Shown here piece after piece: positions 1,964 to 27,028 of a stretch of 32,000 nucleotides of DNA. Source of the DNA: Candidatus Saccharimonadota bacterium (GTDB lineage Bacteria > Patescibacteriota > Gracilibacteria > Absconditabacterales > Absconditicoccaceae); contig OZ246420.1 of NCBI GenBank assembly GCA_965231145.1, positions 390,001 through 422,000 on the forward strand. The letters are read 5' to 3'. Position numbers and translations under genes: made by a program. The notes beneath the pieces were generated by a model that saw nothing but the letters and a program-made list of their open reading frames with translations, was not told where the DNA came from and made no database searches. Positions within the stretch are counted from its first letter, which is position 1. Each line of letters starts with the position of its first letter.

Positions 1964-3505
1964 ATGAGAGATACATTGAAGTTTATTATTCAGGTAGCCG
2001 TTATTGTATTTGTAGGGTGGTTCCTGGTGAAATTTACGACGATAGATGATTCCATCATCTCATTTTTTCGCGCAAATAGTACGGTTATGACATGAAATGT
2101 TTCAGTTATCAATAACGGAGGAGATATTGTAGCCGGTGACGGCGCGTCGTGTACGACTCCATGGGGTGAAACACTCAATCATGGAACGTATATCATCGCC
2201 TATGAAAGCACGCAGTCATGTAAATATGAAAAGAGATTTTGTAATAATGGATATCTTGAAGGAACTTATTCATCAGACCACTGTAATTCACCTGAAGGCA
2301 TCATCCAAAAGACTGTCGTAAAACCCGTTATTTCTAAGATTGCATATGGTTATGTGCAGGGGACAACACAAAGCAATTATAGTTCTCCGAGCCTTACCAA
2401 TGGTAATGGAACAGTAACCATCATCAACTCATGGAATAATACGAAAGGGAATCCAACGACTATTTCAGCAAATGATAGTAACTATAAGAAGCCAACAGCT
2501 TATAAAAACTATGACCTTACACAGCATGGATGTACAACGCCATGGGGAAGTTATATAGATAGCAGCGAATGGGTTATTGCCTATAAGTCACCAAAGCCAG
2601 CCTATGCAGGAGCTTCATGTACGTATGAAAGAAGAACATGTTTCCAGGGTACGCTTGGTGGAAGTTACATCTATCCAACATGTACACTTGCTAACAATAA
2701 CACTATCTATAATAATTATGGTCAGGATTACTATTATCCAACTTCAGTCACAAACAGATCTTGTATAACACCATGGGGACAGTCAGTAAGAAATGGTTCT
2801 CGTGTTTATGCGTACAGATCATCATACTCTTCATCAAGCTATGGATGTCAGGGAGAGTATAGAACTTGTAGAAATGGTTACCTCGATGGTAGTTACCAGT
2901 ACAGCTCATGTAATAACTATGATAATGGTTGTCACTATGGTAACTGTGGAGGAAATGACTATGGTAGAAGCTGCTCACTTCCATGGGGAGGTAGCATAGC
3001 AGATGGGTCATCAGTAACAGCGTACAACAACTCATCAGCACCATGTTCAAGTGAAAGAAGAACATGTAGAAATGGCTATCTTGAGGGTAGTTATCAGTAT
3101 AGTTCATGTAATAATACACCAACATATAGTTCTTGTTCACTCCCATGGGGAGGTTCTATTCAGAACGGACAGACAGTAGAAGCTTACCAAAACTCATCAG
3201 CTCCATGTTACAAAGAGGTAAGAACATGTTACAATGGTTCGCTTGGTGGAAGCTTTCAGTATGCATCATGTAACCCTGGAACAAATCCAACAGGCGGATC
3301 AGATACATATGGTAGCTGGCAAAGTGCTGGTGACAAGGAAGGAAACGTTGATAGCCTTGATACTTGTAACTCTAATGCAACATCGCCATATACGTGTGGA
3401 TCAGAAAGCTCAAATAGCTGTACTGACTACCAGAAAATTAATTGTACATCATTTTCTCCTATGATCTGTTCATATCAAACAAGAGCGGTATCGTGTGTCA
3501 AATAA
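1964..3505 (+). CDS. Secreted/anchored cysteine-rich 'C-x2-PWG' repeat protein (513 aa under code 25)
   Basis: ATG 1964 shares a frame with track ORF 2354..3505, joined through one TGA at 2093-2095. N-terminal hydrophobic helix (FIIQVAVIVFVGWFLV), then five Cys-rich modules and a Cys-rich tail. TAA stop at 3503-3505, with a terminator downstream. Confidence 0.75.
2150..3271 (+). repeat. Five tandem ~46-51-aa protein modules: C-x-[TL]-P-W-G-x(~14)-A-Y-x(5-11)-C-x2-E-x-R-x-C-x-[NQ]-G-x-L-x-G-[ST]-[YF]-x(3-4)-C
   Basis: Modules run from first to last Cys codon at 2150-2284, 2531-2683, 2762-2911, 2972-3109 and 3134-3271. Each has four conserved Cys, for example CSLPWGGSIADGSSVTAYNNSSAPCSSERRTCRNGYLEGSYQYSSC. 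Confidence 0.8.
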
Positions 3506-4207: not shown

Positions 4208-5251
<1,044 letters not shown>

Positions 5252-8544: not shown

Positions 8545-11500
8545 TTACTTCAACGTTCTCATCAAAAGATCCATAACGTCAATTCTACGATTCTTTATGA
8601 TCCTTAGGCGAGAGGTTTCATCATATCTTTTAAGAATAATCTGCAGCTCATTTGTGCTGAGAGTATCGTATGGTCTGAAACTCGGTGTAAGTGTATTGGC
8701 TGTTGAGCCTCTTCCCATGAGACCGAGATTACAGATGTCTTGTATGACGCTTCTTACTGACTCGTTAATACTTTCATCAATATCTTGGTATGCATAAATA
8801 TTACATTCGCTACGAGGTTCGATTTCCTGCTGTGCTACATTTTTTACGTAGTTGACGATCATCGTAGCAGCTTCATACCTTTGTACTGGCACATAGAGTC
8901 TTGCTCTGCTCAGTGGCATAGTTGTCACGCCATTATCATGTGCCCATCTATAGACACTTGCAGGCGATGGATTTGTACCCATGTTTCCTCTATCTGGTAT
9001 CGGTTCATTTCCTGTTTCAATAGGTTTAGATTGGCTTTCTGCCGTAAGTATAGGTCTTGTATTGAGATTAAATGTCGGAGAAGCTCCGTCTTTGCCTGTA
9101 GCGACATTTGCGCGTTCTGGAAGAATAGTATCTATCCATGCATATGTGCCGGTAAGTGTATTGTTCGAATGATCGCTATCGTATCCAGACCAGAGAGTAA
9201 ATGTGAAGTCGTAGATTACCCCGGTTGTGGTATCTATGACAAAAGCTCCGGTAAAGAGAATAGTTGCATCATTTTGTGCAGAACTACTTGGGAGGATAGT
9301 ATATGTATATATTCCACTACCAAGTGATGTCCATCAGTTATTGTTGCTTGCAGAAATCATTCCGGTACCAATATCCACTCTCAGAGAACCAGTGAATGAA
9401 GCACTTGCTTCTCCTTGTGAGTAACGTGCTCCCAGAGTAAGAGTTGAACCTGTCATTTGAGTTCCTGATGTTGGAGAGAGGACAATGCTATTAAGTCTGC
9501 TGTCGCTGAGTATCGTCTGTGTATCTTCCCAGTTTACCTGATATGTATCCATGATGTCTAGCTCAGTACTTGCTATAACAGCTCTTGCAAGATGGTTGTA
9601 AGAAACATCTAATACATTGAGATTGCTGAGTGAAGAGAGAGTATTGCCAGGTATAGTAATAAGTTCATTGTGAGCAATGGAGAAGAATTCCAAATTACTA
9701 ATATTGAGAATGGTTGTTGGGAGCGTAGAGAAGTTATTTGTACTTATGTCTACTGCTGTAAGATATGGAAGTGAAGCAATGCTACTTGGGAGAGAAGAAA
9801 GATTGTTTGCAGAGAGGTCTATTCAGACAATATGTCATCCTGCGCAGCTTATGCCTTGCCAGTCACATATATTACTAATAGCGTTAGTACCCCAAGCCTG
9901 AGACCAACCACTCATGTTTGCAACTGTTGTTCCTGAAAGGGCAGTAGCAAAGTTTACTATTGTCTTACATTCATTTTCTGATATATCGAGCACTCATGCG
10001 CACGTACTTATCGTAACGCTTGATGCGTCAGTTGTCGCAGTTCTTATATCTCCTATATTTCCCATGAGATCTTGATATGAGATCGCTATACTTATAGCTC
10101 CTGCCGATACATTATTGTCAATTTCAAGCTCAGCTGTATAACAGTAGCTTTCGCATACTGTTTGTGAGACGCTAGCGCTTTGGCCTCATAGCGAAACGGC
10201 AAGAGTACTCATGTTCAATTGTTCATTTGATCTGAACGTCAGAGTAATAGTATCTCCATTTTCGCCAATCGTTGGATTCGTATTGTCTGTGCCTATGTGG
10301 ATAGTATCGAGCAAAGGTTTCTGTGTGTCTATATTTACTGTTCCGCTTGTTACCGCTGTTCTTACGGCGCCTATATTTCCTGCAAGGTCTGCATACGATA
10401 TACGAATGCCTGCGATACCATTGTTTGTAGTACCATCCACCGTAATGCTTCCTGAGTAACAGAATCCATCGCAGCTCATTCTTTGGAGATTTGCTGATCT
10501 TCCTGCTATGAGTCCAGACAGGCTTCCGGTCATGAGCGCTTCGCTTGCTGTAAAGAGGAGTGTTATTTTATCTCCTGATTTTGCACCTGTAGAATAGATG
10601 TTATTTGAAAAAATGAAGATATTTGAAAGAGTAGGAACAGATGCGTCTATACTTACTGATGAACTATCAGTTGTTTCTGTGATAGTTCATCCTGTGTTGC
10701 CTGCAGCGTCTTTATATGATACCGCTAATGCTACTGTTCATGAGGTGGTAGTACTGTCTACGACAATGCTTCCTGAATAACAGAACCCCGGACAGTTAGA
10801 CATCCTTACTACCGATCCGGACTTATTTGCTATACTGAGAGAGATCGATCAGGTGAGGAGGATTTCATCCGTTGTGAAAGATACCATGATAGTGTCGCCA
10901 GATCTTGCAACTCATGTTTGTGAGTTTGATGAGCGTATGTTTGCGGATAATAGAGCAGGTATTTGGTTGTCTATAGTTACTGAAGATCAATCAGTTACTG
11001 TAGTAAATTGAGTCCCAGAAACACCTATCATGTTTGTATAATCTATAGTGAATGAGACTGGATTACTGAATGCCTGAGACACCTGTGCTGTCGCAGTATA
11101 ACAATGAGATCCGCATGATCCGGTAGCAATACTAGCTTGCTGTCAATTTATGTCTACATTTATGTTGTTGATATCCAATTGTTCAGAACCTGTAAATGAA
11201 AGTATGATATTGTCTCCAGATTTTGCCAATGAGGTATTGTTTGCATTGTTAGAAGCGATATGCACATAAGTAAGCGTCGGTGCTTCTCTGACTACTTGTA
11301 CTGATGAGCTATCTGTTGTAGAAATATGAGTTACTCATGAGTTTCCAAATAAGTCGCTGTAAGAGATTGATATATCAAGTTCTCCATCAGAGAAATTACT
11401 ATCAATCGTAACAGTAGCGGTATAACATATCCCGCCACATGATGCCTCTTCAAGTGTTGCAGTTTGTCATCCTATAGTCACGTTTGCGCTGGTAAGATCA

Positions 11501-14500
11501 ATTTGTTCATCAGTCTCGAAGCTTAGTGTGACATCGTCTCATTCTACGGCGATAGCAGTATTGTCATTTGATGATGCAATAGATGCCATGACGATCTGAG
11601 GAGCTATTGTATCAATAATTACTTCCGAACTATCAGTAGTTGATGTCATGGTATTGGAGGTGTTTCACCTGTCATCTACATAGCTCACAGATATATCAAC
11701 AGTGCCATTTTGGGTTCCATTATCTACGATGATGGTTCATTCAAAGCATGTATCAGAACAACCTCTTATCATGTTTGCCGATTCTCCTGCTATGGTTGCA
11801 GAGATAGTATCAGCGTCAAATAATTTATTTGTTCGTATGTACAACGTTATGGTGTCTCATGATACTGCCTGAGTAGAATTTGTATTATTGGATGATGTAA
11901 TAGATACTTCATCAATGGTTGGCATACGCCCATCTATAGAAATACCCATATATATACCTGTAAAGACGTTATTGGGATTGCCAGCAAGATCGGTGGCTGT
12001 AACACTAAAGAGGGGATTTCCTACTGCCATTTGTTCATTTGCAAGAGTAGTGAGTGTATAACAAATACCTCCACAGTCTACACTTTGTAGCGTTCCTGTC
12101 TGTCACGCAATAAGCACGTGTATACTTCCTGAAATCAGTGGTTCATCGCTTTCGAAATATATTGTGAGTGTATCTCCTGAAATAGCTATCGTTGGGTCAG
12201 TATTATCCGAACTGATGTTCATTTGACTTATATTTACAGGAGTGGTATCTATGGTGATTGCATCATAATTGAGCCCAGTAGAAGACTGATTTCCAAAAGT
12301 GTCATATATATCTACTTCCAAGTAGAGAGTGCTATTGCTGTTGTTATTATCTATGACGAGAGCTCCAGAATAGCAGAATTCACCACAGTTCATTTTTTGT
12401 ATATTTACTGTTTCGCCATCAATAGTTACATGCGAAAGGCCTGTTGCTATAGCTTCATCTGTCTGAAACAGAACTGTTACCGTATCGCCTGATTTTGCAA
12501 ATGAACTATTTGGATTGGTAGAAAAAGCACTAATATTATAAATAATAGCAAGAGTATTGTCTATGGTGATCGAAGATCCGTCTGTTGTGGAGTATGTCTC
12601 TCCTGCGTTTTCATAACTGTCTGTATAGTAAAGATAGAATGATGCAAGTCAGTCTGACCGATAAGGAAGAGCTATTACTGATCATGAGTAACAATATGTC
12701 TCACATGAAATTGCTGTAAGATTTGATATGCTTTCGCCATTGATATCTGCATAGAAGCTAGATAATGATATCTCTTCATCGCTTTTGAAAGTAAGTGTTA
12801 TAATGTCCCCACTCTTTGCGGTTTGGTTAGAAGTAACATTGTTCGATTGTAGATGAATATCAGAAATTGCTGGCGCTCTTGTATCAATGTATACTGCGCT
12901 GTCTCAGGTCTCTAAACTAGTAAAGGTTGTTGTATTTCCCGCAAGATCATTGTATTGCACGAAGAGAGATGCATGTCACTGCTCGCTGTTTCCGCTTACA
13001 ATAATCTCTCATAGATAACAATAAAAAGGTAGGCATCCCGAAGCCATGGCTCCTGATAGGACGTGTATAGTGCCTGTTTGTCCTGCAATAAGCATTGAAA
13101 TAGTATTTGCTTTCAATGGTTCAAGCGTTTCTATAAATAAGGTTATAATATTGCCTGATATCGCAATATCGCTTGAAAGCGGATTGTCCGAATACATATC
13201 TTTTCAAATAGGAGTTGCTGGCGTATTGTCTGCTGTGACCGATGATCCATCCGTAGTTGCATCAACCCCGTTATGTGCATTACCGAAGCGATCAGTAATG
13301 TTTATCCGGAACGAAATAAGAGTATTTGTTGTGTTGTCCACTACGGTAGAAAAACTATAACAAAAACCATCACTACATGTAAATGATGCTAATGGTAAAG
13401 TAAGGTTATCCATGTTAGCATTATATATAATTCCGTCAGATCGTGTTGTGTCCAATGGTTCATTTGATTTGAATGAAACCGTGACTATGTCTCATGATTT
13501 TGCAAATCCTGTAGAAGAGAGGTTGTTTGACTCGATATGAACATTTGAAATAATCGGCTCTGTATTGTCTATGGTAATTGACGATCCATCTGTTGTCCCG
13601 CTAAATTGTACTCACTCGTTACCTGGCAGATCCGCATAGTCTATATTGATAGACTGGATTCACTCCGAGAAGTTTCAGTCTATTGTTATTTGTCATTGAT
13701 AACAGTATTGGTTGGCGCTTCCTCCACATTCTCATACGCCGACAAAAGAGAGGTGGTCTCCAGTAATTCCTCCAAATATGGGATAGACATAACTTAACTC
13801 TTCTGAAGATAGTATGGTGAAATTTATAGTGTCTCCTATGCGCGCGAAACCTGTATAATTTGTACTGGAAACAGACACATATGGAAGAATTGGTTTTATG
13901 GTATCTATAATAACATATGTGCCGTTATATGTAGCAGATATTATCCCGTTATCAGATACGTTTCCTACTTGGTCTGTATAGTAGATGCTGAAAGTGCCAG
14001 TCCCTTGTGTAGTGCCACTTTGTACTATTACGCTTACATCATAACAGAAAGCCATATTGCACGATGTTCCTGTAGCTGCAGAGTATACTGGAATGCCTGC
14101 TATGTCGCCTGTAATACTATTGGTGATGATAGGTTCGCTTGTGTCAAAGTGGACGGTGATGGTATTGCCTTGTTTTGCAAGAGAATTGTCATTTACATTT
14201 GAAGAAGTGATAGTTACAAACTCATGCTGGGGATTGATAATGTCTACTATGACATACGATCCGTCTGTTGTGCTCGTGTATTCTTCGCTTGGATTTCATG
14301 TTATATCTTTCACAAGAATACCTATCTCTGGTTCGTCGCCAGATCGGTCTTGATCTATAAGAAAAGTGGCTTCATAACAGTACCCATCACAGGCTATCTG
14401 TGAAAGAATTGCTTGAATACTATTGATGTAGACGCCTTGTCCTGGTTCTAGATTTGGCAGATCTATTTCTTCATCGGATTCAAATGAGACAGTGAGTGTA

Positions 14501-17157
14501 TCTCCTAGTCTTGCGTAATAGCTTGGAGTGCGATTTGACTCAATATGAATGTTTGAAAGGGTGGGTGCTATAGTATCAAGAAGCACGCTTGATGCATCGC
14601 TTGTCTGATTAATAGTTTCTCCGGTGTTACCATAGTTGTCATAATAGATGATTTCTACATTTACAAAATCATTGGGTTCTCATGAGCCAGTAACCGTTCG
14701 AATTGCCTGGTAACAATAAGTTCCACATCATATTGGAGATTCGACGATAGAATGACCATTGATAAACACTTCAGCAGAGATGGGTTCGTCAGCCTCAAAG
14801 GTAAGGAAAATATTGTTTCCTACTGAAGCTAATGTAGTATTTGGATTGTCTGATTCGATATGAACCGCTGATATAACAGGTGCGATGCTTTCTATTTCTA
14901 CAGCAGAGCTATCGCTAGTGGCGGTTTCTTCCAATCATGCATTTCCAAATAGATCTTGATAGCCTATAGTAAACTGTGCATTTCACTGTTGAGAATATTG
15001 ATCTATCAAGATGTTTGCTAGATAACAAAATACTCATGGTCCACAGTCACCTTGTGAAGCTGAAGCTGATTGGCCTGCAATAGTAACCGTAAGAGTATTG
15101 AGGTCCAATTCTTCATTTGCAAAGAAACTCAAAGAAACTTCATCTCCAAAAACTGCTATAGCGGGATCATTGGAATTTGTTGACTCGATATGTATGTCAC
15201 TCAACCCAGGAGGATCAAGATCTACTCCATATTGAGTGCTTTCCCAGTCGGGTTGCAGTAAATCCAGTATGTCAGTCTCTGTTGAGGCAAGGTTATTTCT
15301 ATTGAGGTAGTTATACGAAGCATCAATGGACGTGAGAGTGTTTCCTATTTGTGCAAAAAGACCTGCGTCAAGATAACTAATAAGGTTGCCACTAAATCAT
15401 AAAGAGCTAAGATTGGCAAGCGATCAAATTTCTACTGGTAGAGCTGTTAGCTGATTGTTAGAAACATTGAGAGCGGTGAGAGCAGATATGTCATAAATAC
15501 TTGAGTCTATGATAGATATTTGATTATTGCTCACATCAAGAATATTGAGTACGTTGAATGATCCAAGAGTATATAACTCACTAGGAAGAGATGAAATCTG
15601 ATTGTGATTCAAAAAAAGTGATACTAGTCATTGTAAGAGACTTATGCTGGAAGGAATAGAACTAATCTGATTATGTGAAAGATCAAGTAGTTCAAGATTT
15701 GCTATTTCTTCAAGTTCATCTGGCAAGCTGCTGATCTGATTGTTGCTGAGGTGGAGTTGGCTTAATTCAGCTAATCCATTGAAGAAACCGCTTGAGACTA
15801 TCGAGATGTTTGCTCAAGAAAGATCAATAGCGTTTGCTCGTCACTTAGAAGTACAGCTTATGCCTTGCCAGTTACAGATCGTAGTTATGATGGGTGTTGA
15901 TTCAAGTAATGCCGACCATCCAGGAAAAGAAGTAAGATCGCTTCAAGGGTTCTCTGTTGCCAATTGTAAGAGACTTCTACACTGTTTGCCTTCGATGCCT
16001 TTCATGAGATCACAATATTGAAATTGAGAAGAAGTTATATCCCGCTGATAGGTTCAGGTAGTAACATTGTTCTCCATATTGATGTCGTACTGATATTCTT
16101 GACGTCTTTGGCTCAAGAGAAAAAGGAACGGATATATATATCACGTATTTACCTTGCCGCCCAATGTTCAAGTGAAAACAATAGTCCCCGACGATGGCTC
16201 AAATGAAGAAGTGGGTAGCGCATAATAATAGTAGCCACTTGTACTGTCAAATCTCCAGTTTGGATCATTTGCTGGGTCTGGTGTAAGAGTATTGGTATTA
16301 AATCTAAATATAATACTATTTCATAAAACAGAGCCTCCTGATCATAGATTATAATCTACTGCAATGGTAAGTAGTCTATAGTTGTTTTCATATCCAATTT
16401 GTACATTACTCAGTATATTATCATTTTCAAAAGTTTGTGTATTTTGCCAATTTGGTGCATAGGTATCTAGGAAGGTAATAGTGCTTTCAGCAAGCCCGCC
16501 AGTTGTCAGATAATTATTATCAATAGAAAATGTACTTATGCTAGGAATTGCATCAAACGCACCTTCTTCTATCGTAAGAAGATGATTATTATCAAAAGTA
16601 AGTGTGTGAAGAAAAGTAAGATTTCATAATCATATAACAGAAGTAAGTTGATTATCATTGAAAAGAGCTACCTCAAGGTTTCCTAGTCATTGGAGGTCTG
16701 GCATGCTGGTGAGCTGGTTGTGTGACAGATCTAAGCTTGTAAGCAAAGCAAAGCTGCTCAATGTAGAAGGAGCTTGCGTTATATTGGTATGGGAAATTTG
16801 GAGCGAAGAAAGAGACGTAATATTCGCGATAGAGTCTGGTATGACATCGAGTGCGAGGTTTGTTAGAGAAACTTCCGTAATAGAGCCGTTTCTACATGTT
16901 ACTCCTTGCCAGTCACACACCGTGTCGTCCGATGTACTAAGGACGAGCGTTTCAAACCATCCTGGATAATTTGACCAGTCTGCAGAAGTGTTGTTGTCAT
17001 AGATATCTACCAGAGCAGAACATTCTAAAGGATTAACATCCGAGACCTGATTACAATCCATGCCTCCTGTTGCGTGTGCGACATATTGTGGTGCCACCAA
17101 TGAAAATAAGACTACAACAAAGGCTAACAATAAACTTCCAGCTACAATTTTTTTCAT
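8545..17157 (-). CDS. Giant secreted cell-surface protein, 2,870 aa under code 25 (signal peptide, 3 LRR modules, 16 Ig-like repeats, C-terminal anchor-like module)
   Basis: All eleven minus-strand track ORFs between 8545 and 17157 share one frame. I read every frame-1 plus-strand triplet in the gaps and found only 'tca' (TGA), never 'tta' or 'cta', with about 50 TGA by manual count. The N-terminus MKKIVAGSLLLAFVVVLFSLVAPQYVAHA is a signal peptide. TAA stop at 8545-8547. Confidence 0.85.
8548..8990 (-). other. C-terminal ~145-aa anchor-like module of the giant protein (SLH-like pattern)
   Basis: VYRWAHDNGVTTM..RYEAATMIVNYV..ECNIYAYQDID..VIQDICNLGLMG..LTPSFRP. A second copy of this module forms the body of the separate secreted protein at 18959..19576. 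Confidence 0.5.
9517..9990 (-). repeat. LRR module 3 of the giant protein
   Basis: N-cap ENECKTIVNFATALSG..WSQAWGTNAISNICDWQGISC, then ~23-aa LRRs (IDLSANNLSSLPSSIASLPYLTAVDISTNNFSTLP..), then the C-cap DTYQVNWEDTQ. Confidence 0.75.
10000..15231 (-). repeat. 16 tandem ~105-110-aa Ig-like/beta-sandwich repeats (period about 320-335 nt)
   Basis: The recurrent unit is D-[ST]-S-x-V-x-I-D-x3-P-x-[LI]-x4-I-x-S-x-N..A-K-S-G-D-x-[IV]-T-[LV]-x-F..E-x-L..I-[AG]-G-[QE]..C-x(2-4)-C-Y..I-x-Y-x-D-x2-G-N. I counted 16 C-x(2-4)-C-[YF] hairpin motifs, near 15040, 14720, 14390, 14050, 13700, 13380, 13020, 12690, 12380, 12070, 11750, 11430, 11110, 10780, 10460 and 10150. Confidence 0.8.
15232..16020 (-). repeat. 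LRR module 2 of the giant protein
   Basis: N-cap QYCDLMKGIEGKQCRSLLQLATENP[TGA]SDLTSFPGWSALLESTPIITTICNWQGISC, then LRRs (LHLSNNQISSLPDELEEIANLELLDLSHNQISSIP..), then the C-cap LLQPDWESTQ. Confidence 0.75.
16435..17070 (-). repeat. LRR module 1 of the giant protein
   Basis: N-cap CNQVSDVNPLECSALVDIYDNNTSADWSNYPGWFE..VCDWQGVTC, then LRRs (LQISHTNITQAPSTLSSFALLTSLDLSHNQLTSMP..), then the C-cap DTYAPNWQNTQ. Confidence 0.75.
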
Positions 17158-17401
17158 TCAATACAAACGAAAAGCGAATAAATACTTAGTTAATATGATG
17201 AAATACCCATCAATTGCAAAAGATAACATCAAAAAACCATTGAAAAATCTTTCCATATCACCTATACTATGTATAGTTATATACATGGCTCGGAGAGCCA
17301 TTTATGAGAATGAGAGACGATTTGAAAAATACTATGAATTGCGTTTTGCAAATACTCCGTCTTTCAGTATTATTGAAGTATATATTTTTTGATAAAAAGA
17401 G

Positions 17402-18436
17402 ATGAGTTTTTTTGTGTTTAAAGAGAGGGTAGAGGACTTTATCGTAGAAGAAATACTCGAGAAAGAGCCGCTATGAAAAGGTGATTATCACTATATTTTC
17501 ATCGAAAAGAAAAACCTGGCGACGTTTGAGCTTATCAGAAAATTACAGGATGAGTTTGGATTCAATAGGAATATGATTGGTATAGCATGACTGAAAGATA
17601 AGCAAGGTGTCACTCGCCAGTGGCTTAGTTTTCTCAAACGCGATGTGCAAAAGTACTGTCAGGGCATCAATAATCTCCTCGCATTTTTTAGAAAGACATG
17701 AAAGGTGGTAAGCGCGACCTATGGTGAAAAGATGCTTAAGCTTGGTGTCAACAAGGGTAATGGTTTTCATGTTATCCTTCGTAGCGCTAAGAAAAAGGAT
17801 TATGAGAAGATACAGGATGCAGTAGAAAAGATCCTGACAGATATTAAAACCTATGGAGTGCCGAACTACTTTGGTCCACAGCGTTTCGGACATAGAGGAA
17901 ATAATTGGCAGACTGGAGAAAAGCTTGTGAAAGGAGAAATCAGATCACTCAAGTGAGATAATAATACTCTTGTGGAAAAGCGTTTTAAGGTGCAGGCGTT
18001 TGCCAGCTATGTGTTCAATACATATCTGGATATTAGAATGTCGAAAGGTAAGTTGTGGAAATTATTGCCTGGTGATGTGATCATCCCCGCAGATGGACGT
18101 TATACTCACTGGAAAGAAGGGGAGCGTGACAATACCGAGAGAATTACTATTACTGGTCCGGTGATCGGAGACGATCTCGCTCATGCAAAAGACACAGCGC
18201 TTAAACTTGAGGAAGAAGCGTATAAAAAGTTTGAACTTCCGAAGAATATAGAAAAATTATTTCAAAACTTTGGCTTGTTTGGTATACGTCGTGCTATCCT
18301 TATCTATCCTGAAAATATCTCATGGAAGCGGACGAAAGACCGTAATCTCATGCTCTCATTTACTTTGCCTTCAGGAGCGTATGCGTCGGTGCTGATCGAT
18401 GTGCTGGAGCAAAGACTGAAAGAAATGCTTTGATAG
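17402..18436 (+). CDS. truD: tRNA pseudouridine(13) synthase TruD (344 aa under code 25)
   Basis: ATG 17402 shares a frame with track ORFs 17705..17956 and 17972..18433. In-frame TGA at 17474, 17588, 17699, 17954 and 18431. It has the catalytic motif GIA[TGA]LKDKQGVTRQW and NYFGPQRFG. The last TGA is immediately followed by the real stop, TAG 18434-18436. Confidence 0.85.
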
Positions 18437-18456
18437 ATGTCGAAGCATTTTTTTAT
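18424..18456 (+). terminator. Rho-independent terminator after truD (stop codon lies in the loop)
   Basis: Stem aatgctt (18424-30) pairs with aagcatt (18443-49), followed by a T-run. Confidence 0.5.
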
Positions 18457-18485
18457 AAAAAAATAGCCAGTCTGTAAACAGACTG
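18452..18485 (-). terminator. Rho-independent terminator after the acidic-repeat peptide gene
   Basis: Stem cagtctg (18468-74) pairs with cagactg (18479-85), and the minus strand continues with a T-run (plus-strand A-run 18454-63). Confidence 0.5.
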
Positions 18486-18516
18486 ACTGTAGTAACTTCA
18501 TTGTCCTGGCCCCAGA

Positions 18517-18777
18517 TTAGGTAGTTGCCGTTGTTTCATCGCCACCAGTGTTGGTTGTTTCGTCGCCGCCGGTATTGGTTGTTTCATCGCCACCAGTGTT
18601 GGTTGTTTCATCGCCACCAGTGTTGGTTGTTTCGTCGCCGCCGGTATTGGTTGTTTCATCGCCACCAGTGTTGGTTTCGTCTTTCCCTATGCAATTGCTG
18701 GCCGGTGCCTTTTCGTCCGATGTGTAGCCGCCGCTTGATGCCGTGTGTCCGTGGTCAAATAAGAATGTTTTTTTCAT
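18517..18777 (-). CDS. Small acidic Thr/Gly-rich tandem-repeat protein (86 aa): MKKTFLFDHGHTASSGGYTSDEKAPASNCIGKDE(TNTGGDET)n TATT
   Basis: ATG 18777 is preceded by AAGAG, one of the rare SD-like sequences in this window, and by a TTGACA-16-TATCAT promoter. TAA stop at 18517-18519, with a terminator downstream. The repeat units differ only at synonymous sites. Confidence 0.6.
   Translation of the reverse strand: MKKTFLFDHGHTASSGGYTSDEKAPASNCIGKDETNTGGDETTNTGGDETTNTGGDETTNTGGDETTNTGGDETTNTGGDETTATT
18533..18676 (-). repeat. Six 24-nt tandem units in two sequence variants, ordered A-B-A-A-B-A
   Basis: On the plus strand A is gtttcatcgccaccagtgttggtt and B is gtttcgtcgccgccggtattggtt. The 4 differences per unit are all third-codon positions on the minus strand (aac/aat, act/acc, ggt/ggc, gat/gac). 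Confidence 0.9.
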
Positions 18778-18805
18778 GACTCTTAATTTTTTTTGGTGAG
18801 GCTCT

Positions 18806-18833
18806 ATGATAATCAATCAATAATATTTGTCAA
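18806..18833 (-). promoter_or_regulatory. Candidate strong sigma70-type promoter of the acidic-repeat peptide gene
   Basis: The minus strand reads TTGACA (18833-18828), 16-nt spacer, TATCAT (18811-18806). Confidence 0.45.
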
Positions 18834-18958
18834 TGGTTATTTCTTATGTGTGCTATATAGATATGACAGTCTAAAATAAGCACTAAAAGCTATTTTCCCT
18901 TGCAATGTGTTCGACTCTCTGTAGATAGGAAACATTTATTCTCTGTTTCTCTACAGGT

Positions 18959-19576
18959 ATGAAAACCTTTCATAAAAAATCTCTTATTTTCCTTGTTCCA
19001 GCATTAGGCTTGATATTTTTCACATCTGCCTTCTCCTACGGTAAAACTATTACCACGTTTTCCTCAAATAATCCTTCGCTTATAAGTGATCAAGAAGGTT
19101 ATGATCGGGCTTATACCAATAACATTACGACACAGCCGAAGGCTCTCGCAAACCTTACTGGTTCTGTCAGAAGATATGAACTCGCAAAAATGATGTCAGA
19201 GTTTTATACTACTGTCATGGGCTACGCTATAACACCAAATCCAGCATGTGATATAACGCTATTTTCTGATTACGGGACTTTTAATCTGGAAATGAAAACA
19301 TATATAAAGAATATATGTGATATGGGTATCATGGGCTGGAACGCTAAAAAAACTGCATTATTGCCTTCATTTCAGGCTAATATGGTTCTATCAGCTATAG
19401 ATTTCAATACGATCATGATAAGATACATTAGGATGGCACGTATAAACTATAGCTTTAGACTTCCTAAAGTAGTAACGAGAAGTGATGTCTTTCGCTTTCT
19501 CTATGATATGGGTAAATATCAGACTCCACAGCAGCCAGGGCAGGGGGGTGTACAAAATAATGCATTAGGACAATAA
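18959..19576 (+). CDS. Secreted protein consisting of a signal peptide plus one anchor-like (SLH-like) module, 205 aa
   Basis: Intact ORF with signal peptide MKTFHKKSLIFLVPALGLIFFTSAFSYG. The body aligns by eye with the giant protein's C-terminus (YDRAYTNNITT../RYELAKMM../ACDITLFSDY../IKNICDMGIMG../LLPSFQ). Confidence 0.7.
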   Translation: MKTFHKKSLIFLVPALGLIFFTSAFSYGKTITTFSSNNPSLISDQEGYDRAYTNNITTQPKALANLTGSVRRYELAKMMSEFYTTVMGYAITPNPACDITLFSDYGTFNLEMKTYIKNICDMGIMGWNAKKTALLPSFQANMVLSAIDFNTIMIRYIRMARINYSFRLPKVVTRSDVFRFLYDMGKYQTPQQPGQGGVQNNALGQ

Positions 19577-19584
19577 TATAAAAT

Positions 19585-19612
19585 AATTCCTTTCCGAAGG
19601 AATTTTCTTTTA
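19585..19612 (+). terminator. Rho-independent terminator
   Basis: Hairpin aattcctt-tccg-aaggaatt (19585-19604) followed by ttcttttac. Confidence 0.6.
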
Positions 19613-20258
19613 CAAAGACATATTATTATACAGTGATAATTTCATGCATAGAAAATATTAAAAGAGGAGTGTACATGTCACAGACACAAGTCGACACACT
19701 CTAATTGTTGAAAAGTGGCTCCCCTGGGCATTGTGATAAAAATGATATAATATATTTTCATGTGAATAGAAATAATAACTAGTGTGTATTTTACATAAAC
19801 ATGGGGAACCAGGGGTTATATAATCCCCTTAAGGCTGATATATGAAAAACATACCCAACCTTGCACAAGATATATTGTGCAATGTAAGAACATGACCAAG
19901 GGTAGGGTCCGTAGAATAAAATCCACACAGGAAAAAATATAAAATTATAACGTGATTTATTGTGCGCCATATAAAATATATAATCCTGCGTTCAAAATAT
20001 GTAAGCATAAAATTTCTCTATCCTTATTCCTCTGCTCACTATTTCAAAATAATAAAAAATCATGAAAAATGCTGTTTTTCATGATCTAGATTTGATGATT
20101 TCTGGATGCGGGTGGACCCAAGTGCCACCCAGAGTTCAAAAACTGCCTGAATAGAAAAAGGGTAGTTTGTACCTATGAAAATGGGGTAGTTACTCCCCTG
20201 TTTTAGAAAAACTAAATAATAGATAGTATTTATTAGTAACTATTTCCAATTATTATTG

Positions 20259-20558
20259 CTACCACGTAGAATATTCTAAATTATTTATATCAGATTCAAT
20301 ATTATCCATATTATATTGAACGTCGTCTATATTTGATTGTACATTATCTATGCTATCTTGTGCATTATATATGTCATCTTCGGCGTAATCCATTCTATTT
20401 TTGAGATCATCAATCTCATATTGCATATCGTAGATATCACTTTTTAATCAATATATTTCGTCTTCTAATGCTGAAATTCTTTTACCCGTTTTAGATGTAC
20501 AACCAGATAAAATAAGGCTAAAAATGAGTGTTATTAACAATGTGGCTTTTTTCATCAT
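20259..20558 (-). CDS. Small coiled-coil lipoprotein (99 aa under code 25)
   Basis: Absent from the track because it is split by TGA 20448-20450. MMKKATLLITLIFSLILSGC carries a lipobox (L-S-G-C). The rest is an acidic heptad-like sequence (ISALEDEIY[TGA]LKSDIYDMQYEIDDLKNRMDYAEDDIYNAQDSIDNVQSNIDDVQYNMDNIESDINNLEYSTW). TAG stop at 20259-20261. Confidence 0.6.
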
Positions 20559-20577
20559 AGAAAATTTGCATCTAAAA

Positions 20578-20859
20578 TTATTTACAATATGACTTGTCTA
20601 CATATGTTTTATTTCCACTATTATTTACATAGTAACATCCGTCTTTAGGTCACTTAATATATTTAATGGTAATCTTCTTAGTTGAAGGTAGCTTACAGTA
20701 TGACTTATGGCAATGATATTGATCTGTCTTATAGCCGTATCTTGCACAGTTTGTCCTGCAATAATGACCTCCATTAGAATCTAATCCACCAGGACTAGCA
20801 AAGGTGAAGCTTGTGATTCATACTAATGTAGTAATAAGCAATAAAAGTGCTTTCTTCAT
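20578..20859 (-). CDS. Secreted YHYH-motif protein with a C-terminal GPxxGxYY basic motif (93 aa under code 25)
   Basis: Absent from the track because of TGA at 20818-20820 and 20650-20652. Signal peptide MKKALLLLITTLV[TGA]ITSFTFA, then SPGGLDSNGGHYC..YGYKTDQYHCH (YHYH-family pattern), then IK[TGA]PKDGCYYVNNSGNKTYVDKSYCK. TAA stop at 20578-20580, 19 nt before the lipoprotein start. Confidence 0.65.
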
Positions 20860-21013
20860 GCCGGCTAAATGAAAGAATAAATATGGCTAAAGATTATCCT
20901 TATGGGATATTATTACAACATAAATAAGATATTGTAATTATGTTTTTGTGTATTTTCACTCCTCCGCCGCTTCGGAGGGCCAATTTGAATTTGTGTACGA
21001 TCATATTTTTATA

Positions 21014-21038
21014 TAAAAAAAAAGGAGCTTTCGCTCCC
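21014..21038 (-). terminator. Rho-independent terminator after the DEAD-box helicase gene
   Basis: Stem ggagc (21024-28) pairs with gctcc (21033-37), and the minus strand continues with T9 (plus-strand A-run 21015-23). Confidence 0.6.
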
Positions 21039-22313
21039 CTATCTTCCATGAGATCTTTTCTGGTTGTGTCACCATTTTTTGCCTTCGTTTCTATGATTAC
21101 TATTTGGGTGGGCTCTTCCTGAAGATCATGTATTTCTTGGTGGTCTTTGTTGCTTCTTTGGAGTTGGTGTATAGACGCCGTTTGTATAAGGATGATCTTT
21201 TACTACCGGGATATCTTGTTTAATAAGTTTTTGAATCTCTTTGATGTGCTTTTTCTCTTCTGTGTCAGAGAATACAATAGCTTTCCCTTGTGCTCCTGCG
21301 CGTCATGTACGACCTATGCGGTGCACATATGTTTCTGGTTCGGTAGGAACATCATAGATGAATACATGAGATAGCAAATCAATATCAATACCTCTTGCTG
21401 CAATATCTGTTGCGACAAGAACTCTTATTTTCTTTTCTTTAATATCTTTCAACGCATTTTGCCTTGCGCCTTGTGACTTGTTTCCATGAATAGCAGCAGC
21501 TTTAATCCCCGCTTTTGCAAGAACAGTTGTTACCTTGTCTGCTCCATGTTTTGTCCTCGTAAATACGATAGCATTTTCTATGCTTGTGTCTTTCAGAAGA
21601 TGTAAGAGAAGATCTTTTTTATCTTGTTTTTCTACGTAATAGAGCGATTGTCAAACTGTGTCTACTGCGGATGAGACAGGAGTGATTTCCACTTTCACAG
21701 GATCTTTCAATATCGTATGAGCAAGCTCCAATATTGCTTTTGGCATAGTAGCAGAAAAGAAAAGCGTTTGTCTTTTGAAAGGAACTTTAGAAACTATTTT
21801 CTTCACATCATGAATAAATCACATATCTAACATACGATCTGCTTCATCGAGGATAAGCATCTTCACATATCAAAGATTGATATGCTTTTGATTGATAAGA
21901 TCGAGAAGTCTTCCTGGAGTCGCAATAAGTATGTCTACTCCTTTGCGAAGTGTCTTTACCTGTGGTGCTTGTCCTACTCCACCAAATATAACAGTGTGTC
22001 TGAGGCCTGTATGTTTTCCATATGCTGCAAAATTTTCACCTATTTGTATGGCTAGTTCTCTTGTTGGCGTAAGTACAAGTGCTTTGATGCGATCTTTGTC
22101 CTCTCCTCCTTGTGGTGCTGAGTATAACATCTGTAATGTCGGAATAGCAAATGACGCTGTTTTCCCTGTTCCTGTTTGTGCACATCCAAAGAGGTCTTTC
22201 CCTGAGAGTACAACAGGAATTGACTGTGCTTGAATGGGCGTTGGAGTCGTATAACCCTCTGATTCAAGAGCTTTCAGTATCGGTTCAATGAGTTGTAAGT
22301 CGCTAAATTTCAT
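21039..22313 (-). CDS. DEAD-box ATP-dependent RNA helicase (RhlE-like, 424 aa under code 25)
   Basis: I walked the frame from 22313 to TAG 21039-21041 and found 5 in-frame TGA (21069, 21303, 21651, 21819, 21870). Motifs are the Q-motif [23 protein letters not shown][TGA]F, SAT, and HRIGRT[TGA]RAG, with a basic C-terminal tail. Confidence 0.9.
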
Positions 22314-25613: not shown

Positions 25614-25614
25614 T

Positions 25615-25636
25615 AAGCCGGACATCCGGCATTTTC
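25615..25636 (+). terminator. Rho-independent terminator
   Basis: Hairpin gccgg-acat-ccggc (25617-25630) followed by attttc. Confidence 0.45.
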
Positions 25637-25704
25637 AATTGACAACGAAGGCTGAAAAGCTAAATACTTATTCAATTACTTCTTTATATTCTTATTGTCA
25701 TTCT

Positions 25705-25854
25705 ATGTTAGTGGTCAATGTAATAGGATTACTCTTTCTTATACTTATTATCGTACTTATCGTAAACTACTCTGCATGGTTCTTTATTCTTCTTCTTATC
25801 CTCGTCGTCGCGTATGTAATTGCGCTTGGGAAAGTACAGAGAGAAAAGAAATAA
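25705..25854 (+). CDS. Possible small two-TM membrane protein (49 aa from ATG 25705; the track uses TTG 25639)
   Basis: The hydrophobic sequence MLVVNVIGLLFLILIIVLIVNYSAWFFILLLILVVAYVIALGK could simply reflect AT-rich low complexity. Confidence 0.3.
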   Translation: MLVVNVIGLLFLILIIVLIVNYSAWFFILLLILVVAYVIALGKVQREKK

Positions 25855-25871
25855 GTCGTATATACATGATT

Positions 25872-25900
25872 AAAAAAACTACTCATAAGAGTAGTTTTTT
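25872..25900. terminator. Bidirectional hairpin terminator between convergent small ORFs
   Basis: Hairpin aaactactc-ataa-gagtagttt flanked by an A-run upstream and a T-run downstream. Confidence 0.5.
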
Positions 25901-25907
25901 AGTATGA

Positions 25908-26244
25908 TTATTTTTTAGGATACATGCTGTAGAGGAAGCCTAAGAGGTTTGATTTGGTATTACTAGTCGGAAAGAGGTGGATAGTTGTTCGTATGTATCT
26001 TTGTAAAATGATATTGAGCTCTTGTTTTTTGCTAATAAGACCGTCTATGGCCCGCAAATAAGTGCTTACAGAACTGATAGTAACGAGCTTGTATAAAATC
26101 TCTGATTTCATGTCTTTCTATCCTCTCATTCTTTTTCCTGCTGAGTAATATTTTTTTGCTTCCGTTACTCCACTCTTTCAAAAAGCGAGAGCCGTCTTGA
26201 ATAACGACTTTTTTCTTGTTTTTGAGGAATACAATGAGTTTCAT
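25908..26244 (-). pseudogene. Two overlapping out-of-frame ORFs (26032..26244 and 25908..26111); a frameshifted gene or an overlapping small-gene pair
   Basis: The ORFs overlap by 80 nt with a +1 frame offset. No TGA is involved, so recoding does not explain the split. An A7 run lies at 26149-26155. No family recognised. Confidence 0.25.
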
Positions 26245-26391
26245 AGTAGCTGTTGGTTATGAAGTAAACTTTTTCCCAACATCCGCTTGTTACTCCTTTT
26301 TAGCTATCTTGCAAGAGCAAATAATCTTTATGTAGACGAAAATATCCTAATATGCTATGCAGTATATTGACAGCTGATTTTTCTGATTTAC

Positions 26392-26416
26392 TAAAAAATC
26401 CTGCATTGAACAGGAC
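26392..26416 (-). terminator. Rho-independent terminator after the HTH-TM gene
   Basis: Stem tcctg pairs with cagga (26399-26415), and the minus strand is followed by T6. Confidence 0.45.
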
Positions 26417-26442
26417 TTTTTATAAAATAATAGCTTTTTTTA

Positions 26443-27024
26443 TTATCCTTTGATGAAAATGAAGATGATAATGATAATAATGACAATAAACATAATAGAC
26501 ATCCATACGATGTTTTTTGTTCTTTCTCCTTTATATCCGCTGTAGACTTCTTTGAGCTTTCCCTCAAGTCTTTCCTTTTCTATGAGAAGTTTCTGCTTTT
26601 CTTCAGTATGTTCAGGAAGTGCGATCATGCTTTTCATTCTACCTTCGAGTTCACCAAGCTTTTGTTGGAGAACAAAGATGACTTTGTTCTTGTCTTCAAG
26701 CGCTTTGTCTTTTTCTGTTATTAGTCAGAAAAACTGATCGAGTCTTTCATTGATGCCTTGATTTCCTCCGCCGTTGCTTGAAGAAGAAGGCTTAGCAATT
26801 GCATTATTGCTAGATGAAATAACTTCAGTATACTCTGCGTCCTGACGAAGAAGATTGAAATCATCCTTAATGGTGTCTACTTCTTCTTTTGCAAGAATAA
26901 CTTTATTAGCAACTTTTTTGTATGATAGTTTGCCAGATTTTACATACCTATCAATAGTTCTTGTAGAGACTCCGAGATACTGTGCTGCAGCTTCGCGAGA
27001 GATGTTATAGCTCAAGTCAGACAT
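26443..27024 (-). CDS. Membrane-tethered HTH protein: N-terminal excisionase/MerR-like HTH, Ser/Gly linker, coiled coil, C-terminal TM helix (193 aa under code 25)
   Basis: Track ORFs 26725..27024 and 26443..26637 share a frame, joined via TGA 26725-26727. I walked the gap and found no TAA/TAG. HTH is AAQYLGVSTRTIDRYVKSGKL, and the C-terminal TM is IVWMSIMFIVIIIIIIFIFI. Confidence 0.7.
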
Positions 27025-27028
27025 CGTA

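Follow-up and report, generated by a model that had tools for sequence, protein, structure and literature searches.

The Vsa and Vlp proteins of Mycoplasma are lipoproteins with a signal peptide and a lipobox, and they often belong to phase-variable multigene families. The phage family phrog_18079 comprises proteins of 270-330 amino acids (aa) with an N-terminal DUF7666 domain, 10-25 octapeptide repeats of the form S/A-T-L/N-T-G-G-D/Y/N-x, and a conserved C-terminal domain; according to GenBank, it includes Bbp36 of Bordetella phage BPP-1, with the repeat tract annotated as "variable region 2" (VR2). In the published account, VR2 of BPP-1 is a 24-bp element present in 9-20 copies depending on the isolate, its role is given as unknown, and the gene is described as non-essential (PMC2884959, with reference to Liu et al. 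2002, 2004). GenBank labels some members of this phage family "ice nucleation protein", and the ice-nucleation protein (INP) of P. borealis has about 65 sixteen-residue repeats (PMC9418140). Here we analyze a small minus-strand gene with a 24-nt tandem repeat, located in a 32,000-nucleotide stretch (the window) of contig OZ246420.1, positions 390,001 to 422,000, from a Candidatus Saccharimonadota bacterium placed in the Absconditabacterales (assembly GCA_965231145.1). In our view, the locus is likely to be a small protein gene that is both lineage-specific and independently transcribed, belonging to Patescibacteria that use genetic code 25 (Gracilibacteria/Absconditabacteria type) and encoding a conserved head and a fast-evolving acidic tail.

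The gene (18517..18777, minus strand) is an open reading frame (ORF) of 86 aa plus a TAA stop without TGA codons, as supported by the ORF list, by codon log-odds and by its being open in both species compared below. Its product is composed of a 34-residue non-repeat head, six copies of TNTGGDET and a terminal TATT. Tandem Repeats Finder (TRF) placed the repeat array at 18530-18676, with a period of 24 (6.1 copies, 86% matches) and a period of 72 (2.0 copies, 100% matches), and a search with the degenerate unit pattern gave 6 matches against 0.00 expected from 100 shuffles; the six 24-nt units occupy 18532..18675 (minus). As the initial annotation had described, the units come in two variants, A (ACC AAC ACT GGT GGC GAT GAA ACA) and B (ACC AAT ACC GGC GGC GAC GAA ACA), arranged in gene orientation as A-B-A-A-B-A, and the duplication of a 72-nt super-unit is real, the two copies being 100% identical. 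A and B are distinguished by four C/T transitions, each of which changes the third base of a codon in the minus-strand frame (4 synonymous, 0 non-synonymous); the probability that four differences would all fall in the 8 third positions is 0.0066 for one phase and 0.02 for any of the three.

A search with the TGA-free divergent neighbor of the gene, a protein of 205 aa, returned one homolog (56% identity) on a 3.8-kb Logan contig (SRR24524804), hereafter L006. TGA is also a sense codon in L006, the DNA of its DEAD-box helicase gene is 80.8% identical to that of the window genome, and the gene order is the same, with the small gene on the minus strand, the 205-aa homolog on the plus strand and the DEAD-box helicase on the minus strand. 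The L006 organism is, on sequence grounds, a genus-level relative that carries an ortholog of the small gene at the same position. The ortholog consists of a head, MKKTFLFDHGQTTAGGYTPKDEKAAPSTCKGKDE, followed by a tail, NATEEEPAATTEEEPGATAITSDSNQDDNNQDDDNQEG..., which ends at the contig end.

The promoter and the head are the conserved parts of the gene. The -35 and -10 hexamers with their flanks (CCATTGACAAATA...ATTGATTATCATAGAGCCT) are identical in the window genome and L006, as are the first 32 coding nucleotides, and the A-run of the leader is kept. Over the 34 codons of the head, the non-synonymous rate (dN) is 0.083 and the synonymous rate (dS) 0.86 (omega ~0.10), and MKKTFLFDHG, GGYT, DEKA, one Cys and GKDE are invariant in both orthologs. 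As judged from these substitution patterns, the head is under purifying selection. The tail of L006, on the other hand, is completely different from that of the window gene. It contains (TEEEPxAT)x2 followed by NQDD-type 15-nt repeats, shows no similarity to TNTGGDET and has no GG sites. Its repeats are likewise in frame (one array of 24 nt x1.9 and another of 15 nt x2.9 that continues to the contig end), and it is likewise acidic and free of Lys and Arg, the net charge of the partial protein being -12 compared with -13 for the window protein.

These results do not bear out the earlier proposal that selection acts on the TNTGGDET peptide, for the ortholog keeps the promoter and the 34-residue head with another tail, and L006 thus provides non-synonymous repeat variation in a related genome. 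The four synonymous differences between units A and B reflect translation in the minus-strand frame used by the gene (frame A), not conservation of the octapeptide, and the TNTGGDET array is a recent, species- or lineage-specific expansion that is not conserved; it arose when an A-B-A triplet was duplicated, very recently, as a 72-nt block. The comparison of the two tails shows very fast evolution by frame-preserving gain and replacement of minisatellites, with constraint on bulk character only: in both species, the tail is strongly acidic, Lys/Arg-free, hydrophilic and of low complexity. Selection thus acts on the head and, in the tail, on bulk character. The gene is a clean example of an N-terminal module under purifying selection whose tail is swapped wholesale among in-frame minisatellites that keep acidity and hydrophilicity, which makes it useful for thinking about the evolution of disordered tails.

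A separate observation concerns the start of the gene. The promoter, the A-run of the leader and the first 10 codons (18746-18833, minus) carry no substitution between the two species. None of the ~5 synonymous sites in the first 10 codons has changed, whereas the synonymous p-distance over codons 11-34 is 0.69, and this suggests an extra nucleotide-level constraint that may act on the translation-initiation region of the gene.

The reading of the locus depends on the genetic code, as the initial annotation missed that TGA encodes glycine here. When TGA is treated as sense, the summed ORF length in the window increases from 24 kb to 57 kb, and an ORF of 2,919 codons with 51 in-frame TGAs appears. 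TGA occupies invariant glycines, for example in DEAD-box motif VI (the bracketed residue in HRIGRT[G]RAG), in the PP-loop of MnmA (SG[G]xDS) and in others, and since these glycines are universally conserved, the genome uses code 25 (TGA = Gly), as in Gracilibacteria/Absconditabacteria. The standard code leaves few long ORFs and fragments most genes in the window; examples of genes read with code 25, all on the minus strand, are 8545-17301, 21039-22313 and 4208-5251. Because code 25 also opens a second minus-strand frame (frame C) across the repeat, the coding frame had to be re-established, for which we used codon log-odds trained on ~7,100 codons of confident window genes. In frame A, the non-repeat head scores +0.283 bits/codon, compared with +0.285 +/- 0.128 for real genes and -0.29 to -0.59 for the other five frames; the whole ORF scores +0.57 bits/codon in frame A and is negative in the five others. 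Under code 25, no frame other than A is open in the window genome as well as in L006. The locus therefore encodes a protein, and does so in frame A, the frame that had been proposed for it at the outset. More generally, a standard-code reading of such genomes alters which frames look open, so that frame calls need a check of the code.

The gene is also an independent transcription unit with its own promoter and terminator. The sigma-70-type promoter (18806..18833, minus) has a -35 hexamer TTGACA at 18833-18828, a 16-nt spacer and a -10 hexamer TATCAT at 18811-18806, matching 11/12 consensus positions. It had been called the best in the window, which holds for intergenic promoter-like sites, but it ties with two 11/12 matches inside the coding sequence of the giant gene. 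The 5' leader, as read from the sequence, is short and A-rich (18778..18799, minus) and contains the previously reported Shine-Dalgarno (SD)-like AAGAG; such motifs are indeed rare, most window genes having none, yet this one is not conserved in the ortholog. Translation starts with the ATG at 18777-18775, and the TTG start listed at 18816 is an in-frame alternative further upstream. The head (N-terminal module, residues 1-34, MKKTFLFDHGHTASSGGYTSDEKAPASNCIGKDE), supported by codon log-odds and by the ortholog, is encoded at 18676..18777 (minus), and the C-terminal TATT with the TAA stop, taken from the sequence and the ORF list, at 18517..18531 (minus). The terminator claimed for the gene was recovered as an intrinsic terminator (18455..18488, minus) with a 10-bp stem (5 G-C pairs; hairpin 18488-18465), a 4-nt loop and then ATTTTTTTAT, and it separates the small ORF from the convergent gene for TruD, whose end is at 18436.

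At 18437-18490, the 3' ends of TruD and the small gene appear to have back-to-back terminators with a common palindromic T7-A-T-A7 tract. The hairpin on the TruD side (AATGCTT...AAGCATT) is weaker and was read by eye, and the scored hairpin is the strong one of the small gene alone.

In its product, the gene has the character first assigned to it, short, very acidic, Thr/Gly-rich and lacking a signal peptide. The protein has a mass of 8.7 kDa, a pI of 4.05 and a net charge of -13, and the 54 residues that follow K32 offer no site for trypsin. No signal peptide, hydrophobic segment or lipobox was found in either ortholog, and the maximum 9-residue hydropathy is 0.04 for the window protein and -0.29 for that of L006, whereas the secreted proteins encoded in the same genome reach 2.4-3.6. 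Single-sequence AlphaFold2 (AF2) predictions gave a predicted local distance difference test score (pLDDT) of 48 and no secondary structure for the peptide, and a pLDDT of 34 for P0006, a member of the phage family. The gene is single-copy, its locus is GC-rich relative to the genome, and the genome is ~1.1 Mb in size (1.107 Mb). Its window neighbors include PheS, an RNA methyltransferase, a Cys-rich secreted protein, MnmA, Adk, a PilB-type ATPase and a 2,870-aa leucine-rich repeat (LRR) surface protein, as well as TruD, the 205-aa secreted protein, the DEAD-box helicase, Tex, TrpS, and M19 and M20 peptidases. The small protein is probably cytoplasmic and highly expressed or abundant.

Homologs of the protein are largely missing from existing collections. 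A word-indexed search with the peptide returned low-complexity matches only, and neither a DNA scan of Joint Genome Institute (JGI) metagenomes nor a JGI scan for TruD synteny found a homolog of the small gene. The same was true of a tblastn search of phages with the peptide and of a DNA pattern search of viral contigs. We found no match to the small protein in NCBIfam, PDB (structural) or PADLOC (defense systems), and a profile of the N-terminal head gave no match either. Look-ups gave no record of the small protein in its exact form, of the version that begins at TTG or of two TruD fragments, and the full-length protein is absent from a collection of 5.8 billion protein sequences. In the same strain, the Logan contigs match the window at 100% identity and are broken off within the repeat (L002 and L003 start at 18647), which makes them uninformative on copy-number variation, and position 1 of L006 also lies inside the repeat tail, so that the short-read (Logan) assemblies of both organisms end there. 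Because assemblies break inside the repeats, the gene is truncated or missed by gene callers and the protein does not reach the record. The small gene thus illustrates concretely how small genes with repeats fall into a systematic blind spot of protein collections. A literature search yielded nothing on DUF7666 or on the sample accessions.

The strongest sequence resemblance is to the phage octapeptide repeats, which raises the question of whether the tail could be a polar beta-solenoid or beta-helix of the Bbp36 (VR2)/DUF7666/phrog_18079 type, that is, a truncated, domesticated or minimal relative with self-assembling octapeptide coils. When 1.84 billion representatives were searched exhaustively with HMMER, 170 matches were obtained at E <= 1e-3, nearly all over residues 30-85. 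Most of them, including the best (phmmer E to 2.8e-28, over the repeat), belong to this one family, whose members match phrog_18079 with E down to 6e-56. The window unit, read as T-T-N-T-G-G-D-E, fits all six conserved positions of a profile of 649 family units, in register, and its 24-bp period is that of VR2 in BPP-1; there are also weak matches to models of phrog_18079 (E = 0.022) and of the gp5 needle. However, hidden Markov models (HMMs) built from 20 full-length members detected neither the DUF7666 N-domain (...HGGFxWP...APDW...CGxGLHG...GKVKF...) nor the C-domain (~45 aa, ...W.D....R....AYVGEdGIkp..Y...) at E <= 100 in any frame of a six-frame code-25 translation of the whole window, and Pfam found no DUF7666 match in the peptide. 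Residues 1-33 score 0.6 bits against the pre-repeat HMM of the family, a value equaled or exceeded by 172 of 3000 shuffles. The octapeptide is absent from the ortholog, so that the motif is of recent origin, in a tail whose sequence is otherwise under no constraint; acidic, Thr-rich linkers that are unrelated, P0031 (TTVGDETT) and P0001 (GGDETTV), give matches that are equally good or better for each unit; and AF2 returned no fold for the peptide or for P0006. We therefore regard a beta-solenoid of the phage type as unlikely. Because the defining flanking domains are absent, the resemblance probably represents convergence on a common polar octapeptide. Two narrower candidates were also rejected. 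A decayed full-length DUF7666/Bbp36 gene is ruled out, as no remnant of the N- or C-domain was found in any frame and the similarity at the N-terminus is not significant. Homology to the T4 gp5 needle was dropped as evidence, since the match to the C-terminal triple-stranded beta-helix of T4 gp5/VgrG (PF22178, PF06715) reaches 21.6 bits, below the Pfam cutoff of 30.9, and one of nine permuted-unit controls, in which composition and period are kept, also matches Gp5_trimer_C, at 18.6 bits.

Other readings place the function of the tail elsewhere. A conserved Cys followed by an acidic repeat tail, as in the small lipoproteins P0001 and P0129, together with the divergent pairing of the gene with that of the secreted 205-aa protein, whose C-terminal domain recurs in the adjacent 2,870-aa LRR surface protein, would fit a surface-exposed or secreted, size-variable protein comparable to Mycoplasma Vsa/Vlp, anchored or exported through Cys29 or an unconventional N-terminal signal. 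We judge this somewhat less probable still, because neither ortholog has a hydrophobic h-region or a lipobox, while genuinely secreted proteins of this genome carry ordinary Sec signals, and because changes in repeat number keep the frame and hence allow no on/off switching. The combination of a conserved head and a hypervariable tail is also the classic leader/core pattern of a ribosomally synthesized and post-translationally modified peptide (RiPP), and the gene is small and strongly promoted, as might be expected of a RiPP or bacteriocin-type precursor with a possibly multi-core peptide that is processed and exported. However, the 32-kb window contains no gene for a C39 peptidase/ABC exporter, radical-SAM enzyme, lanthionine synthesis, cyclodehydratase or glycosyltransferase, that is, none for processing, tailoring or export; the surrounding genes encode housekeeping and surface proteins; the tails, being long, polyacidic and free of Cys, differ from known cores; and small genomes like this one rarely carry RiPP pathways. 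Such a precursor is thus highly improbable, and with the ortholog tail lacking GG sites, the earlier suggestion of a product cut at GG sites is not supported either. Finally, the locus might not be a protein gene in frame A at all, but a structured or small RNA, a DNA-level repeat with iteron-like sites, or a real ORF in frame C (18257-18889), which is open over 211 codons when TGA is sense and lies in locally GC-rich DNA. Frame C as a real ORF is ruled out, as it scores -0.65 bits/codon, the A/B differences are non-synonymous in it and the ortholog has a stop there; a non-coding RNA is ruled out because Rfam gave no match to the transcript at gathering thresholds (chance-level matches only at E <= 10) and because the predicted transcript folds no better than shuffles (minimum free energy (MFE) z = +0.24). 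With an N-terminal peptide under purifying selection amid many synonymous changes, we give any reading outside frame A almost no weight.

As for how a small protein with a conserved head and an acidic tail might work, the head would be a short docking or metal-binding motif, with the invariant His9 and Cys29, that places a polyanionic, disordered tail acting through its bulk negative charge and hydration. The tail could then serve as a divalent-cation binder or buffer, as a mimic of nucleic acid or another polyanion, or as a hydrated spacer; cation binding, which may apply, was among the roles first suggested for the product. This mechanistic proposal is tentative, and the chances are rather against it, as it is drawn from composition and the pattern of conservation only. 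Further points weigh against our interpretation as a whole. A single ortholog was found, truncated by the contig end, so that the evolution of the tail rests on two sequences. The fit to the phage octapeptide STNTGGDx leaves room for an ordered beta-solenoid tail, on which single-sequence AF2 is not decisive. In addition, in L004, a more distant relative and the only one found in GTDB (TruD 66% identity), TruD is followed downstream by another gene and there is no repeat, and the phylogenetic range of the small gene may therefore be narrow.

A bolder possibility, which we consider a long shot, is that code-25 epibiotic bacteria possess an abundant, unannotated small-protein family in which the conserved 34-residue head bears a polyanionic repeat tail that is rapidly invented anew. 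In the lineage studied here, the tail would have converged on the polar T-x-T-G-G octapeptide of Bbp36- and INP-like proteins and could act by beta-solenoid self-assembly, or as a mimic of nucleic acid or cations, in interactions with host or phage; such a family would be missing from databases and might be far more widespread than the two copies seen here. Independently of this, the small gene described here is real and conserved, is probably highly expressed and belongs to a bacterium of the candidate phyla radiation.

Several other features of the window are worth mentioning. Within an AT-rich, ORF-poor gap (19577-21038), a block of ~350 nt (19850-20210) is 72% identical to L006:1318-1670 and contains several perfectly conserved hairpins. 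Its MFE z is -3.5 on the plus strand and -4.5 on the minus strand, compensatory changes occur in 5 of the 60 predicted pairs (two sequences), and Rfam gave no match to it; the block is a candidate lineage-specific structured RNA or cluster of regulatory hairpins. In the same gap, degenerate 21-nt tandem repeats (~3.8 + 2.1 copies; 20273-20380) overlap a promoter-like run on the minus strand.

In the 2,870-aa secreted protein (8545-17157, minus), each end carries an LRR block or blocks, and there are numerous repeat modules of ~100 aa that contain Cys. A C-terminal domain of ~115 aa is common to this protein and to the 205-aa secreted protein (18959-19576, plus), with 32% identity and E = 4e-19, and neither domain has a match in Pfam. 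A 513-aa membrane-anchored or secreted protein (1964-3505, plus), also without a Pfam match, contains about six Cys-rich repeats (C..PWG....G....AY......C..E.R.C.NG.L.GSY.Y.SC). Finally, a 194-aa protein (26443-27027, minus) combines an N-terminal HTH_17 domain (excisionase/MerR-like), a coiled coil and a C-terminal transmembrane helix, and the AT-rich, ORF-poor DNA that adjoins its gene (25614-26442) may be the remnant of a mobile element.

Compared with the systems described at the outset, the small gene shares with Bbp36 and the DUF7666 (PF24703)/phrog_18079 proteins a 24-bp in-frame tandem repeat that encodes an octapeptide, [ST]-T-x-T-[GA]-G-x-x. However, those are genes of phage early regions with conserved N- and C-domains, whereas the small gene is chromosomal, lies among housekeeping genes and has an ortholog without the motif. 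The octapeptide AGYGSTxT of ice-nucleation proteins, arranged in 16-residue coils, has the same eight-residue periodicity and a T-x-T followed by small or Gly residues, but the small protein has only six units (48 repeat residues), carries D-E in every unit, lacks a Tyr ladder, a membrane anchor and capping domains, and gave no match to the Pfam Ice_nucleation model at E <= 10.

Similar units occur in P0001, an 82-aa lipoprotein with [AT]GGDETT[VA] x5 that is also similar to the small protein in overall size, and in P0031 (TTVGDETT x15), which have a near-identical GGDETT unit, an eight-residue period and the same hydrophilic, acidic, low-complexity character. In proteins of this type, by contrast, the repeats follow a Sec or lipoprotein signal peptide or form linkers in large multidomain proteins, and the head of the small protein is unrelated to them. 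The Vsa/Vlp proteins of Mycoplasma offer a parallel in organization, as they too have a conserved N-terminal segment followed by in-frame tandem repeats that change rapidly between strains or species, although the small gene is not part of a multigene family and its product carries no export signal. The small gene is thus a new, lineage-restricted small-protein family of a familiar kind, in which a conserved module is joined to a variable tandem-repeat tail.

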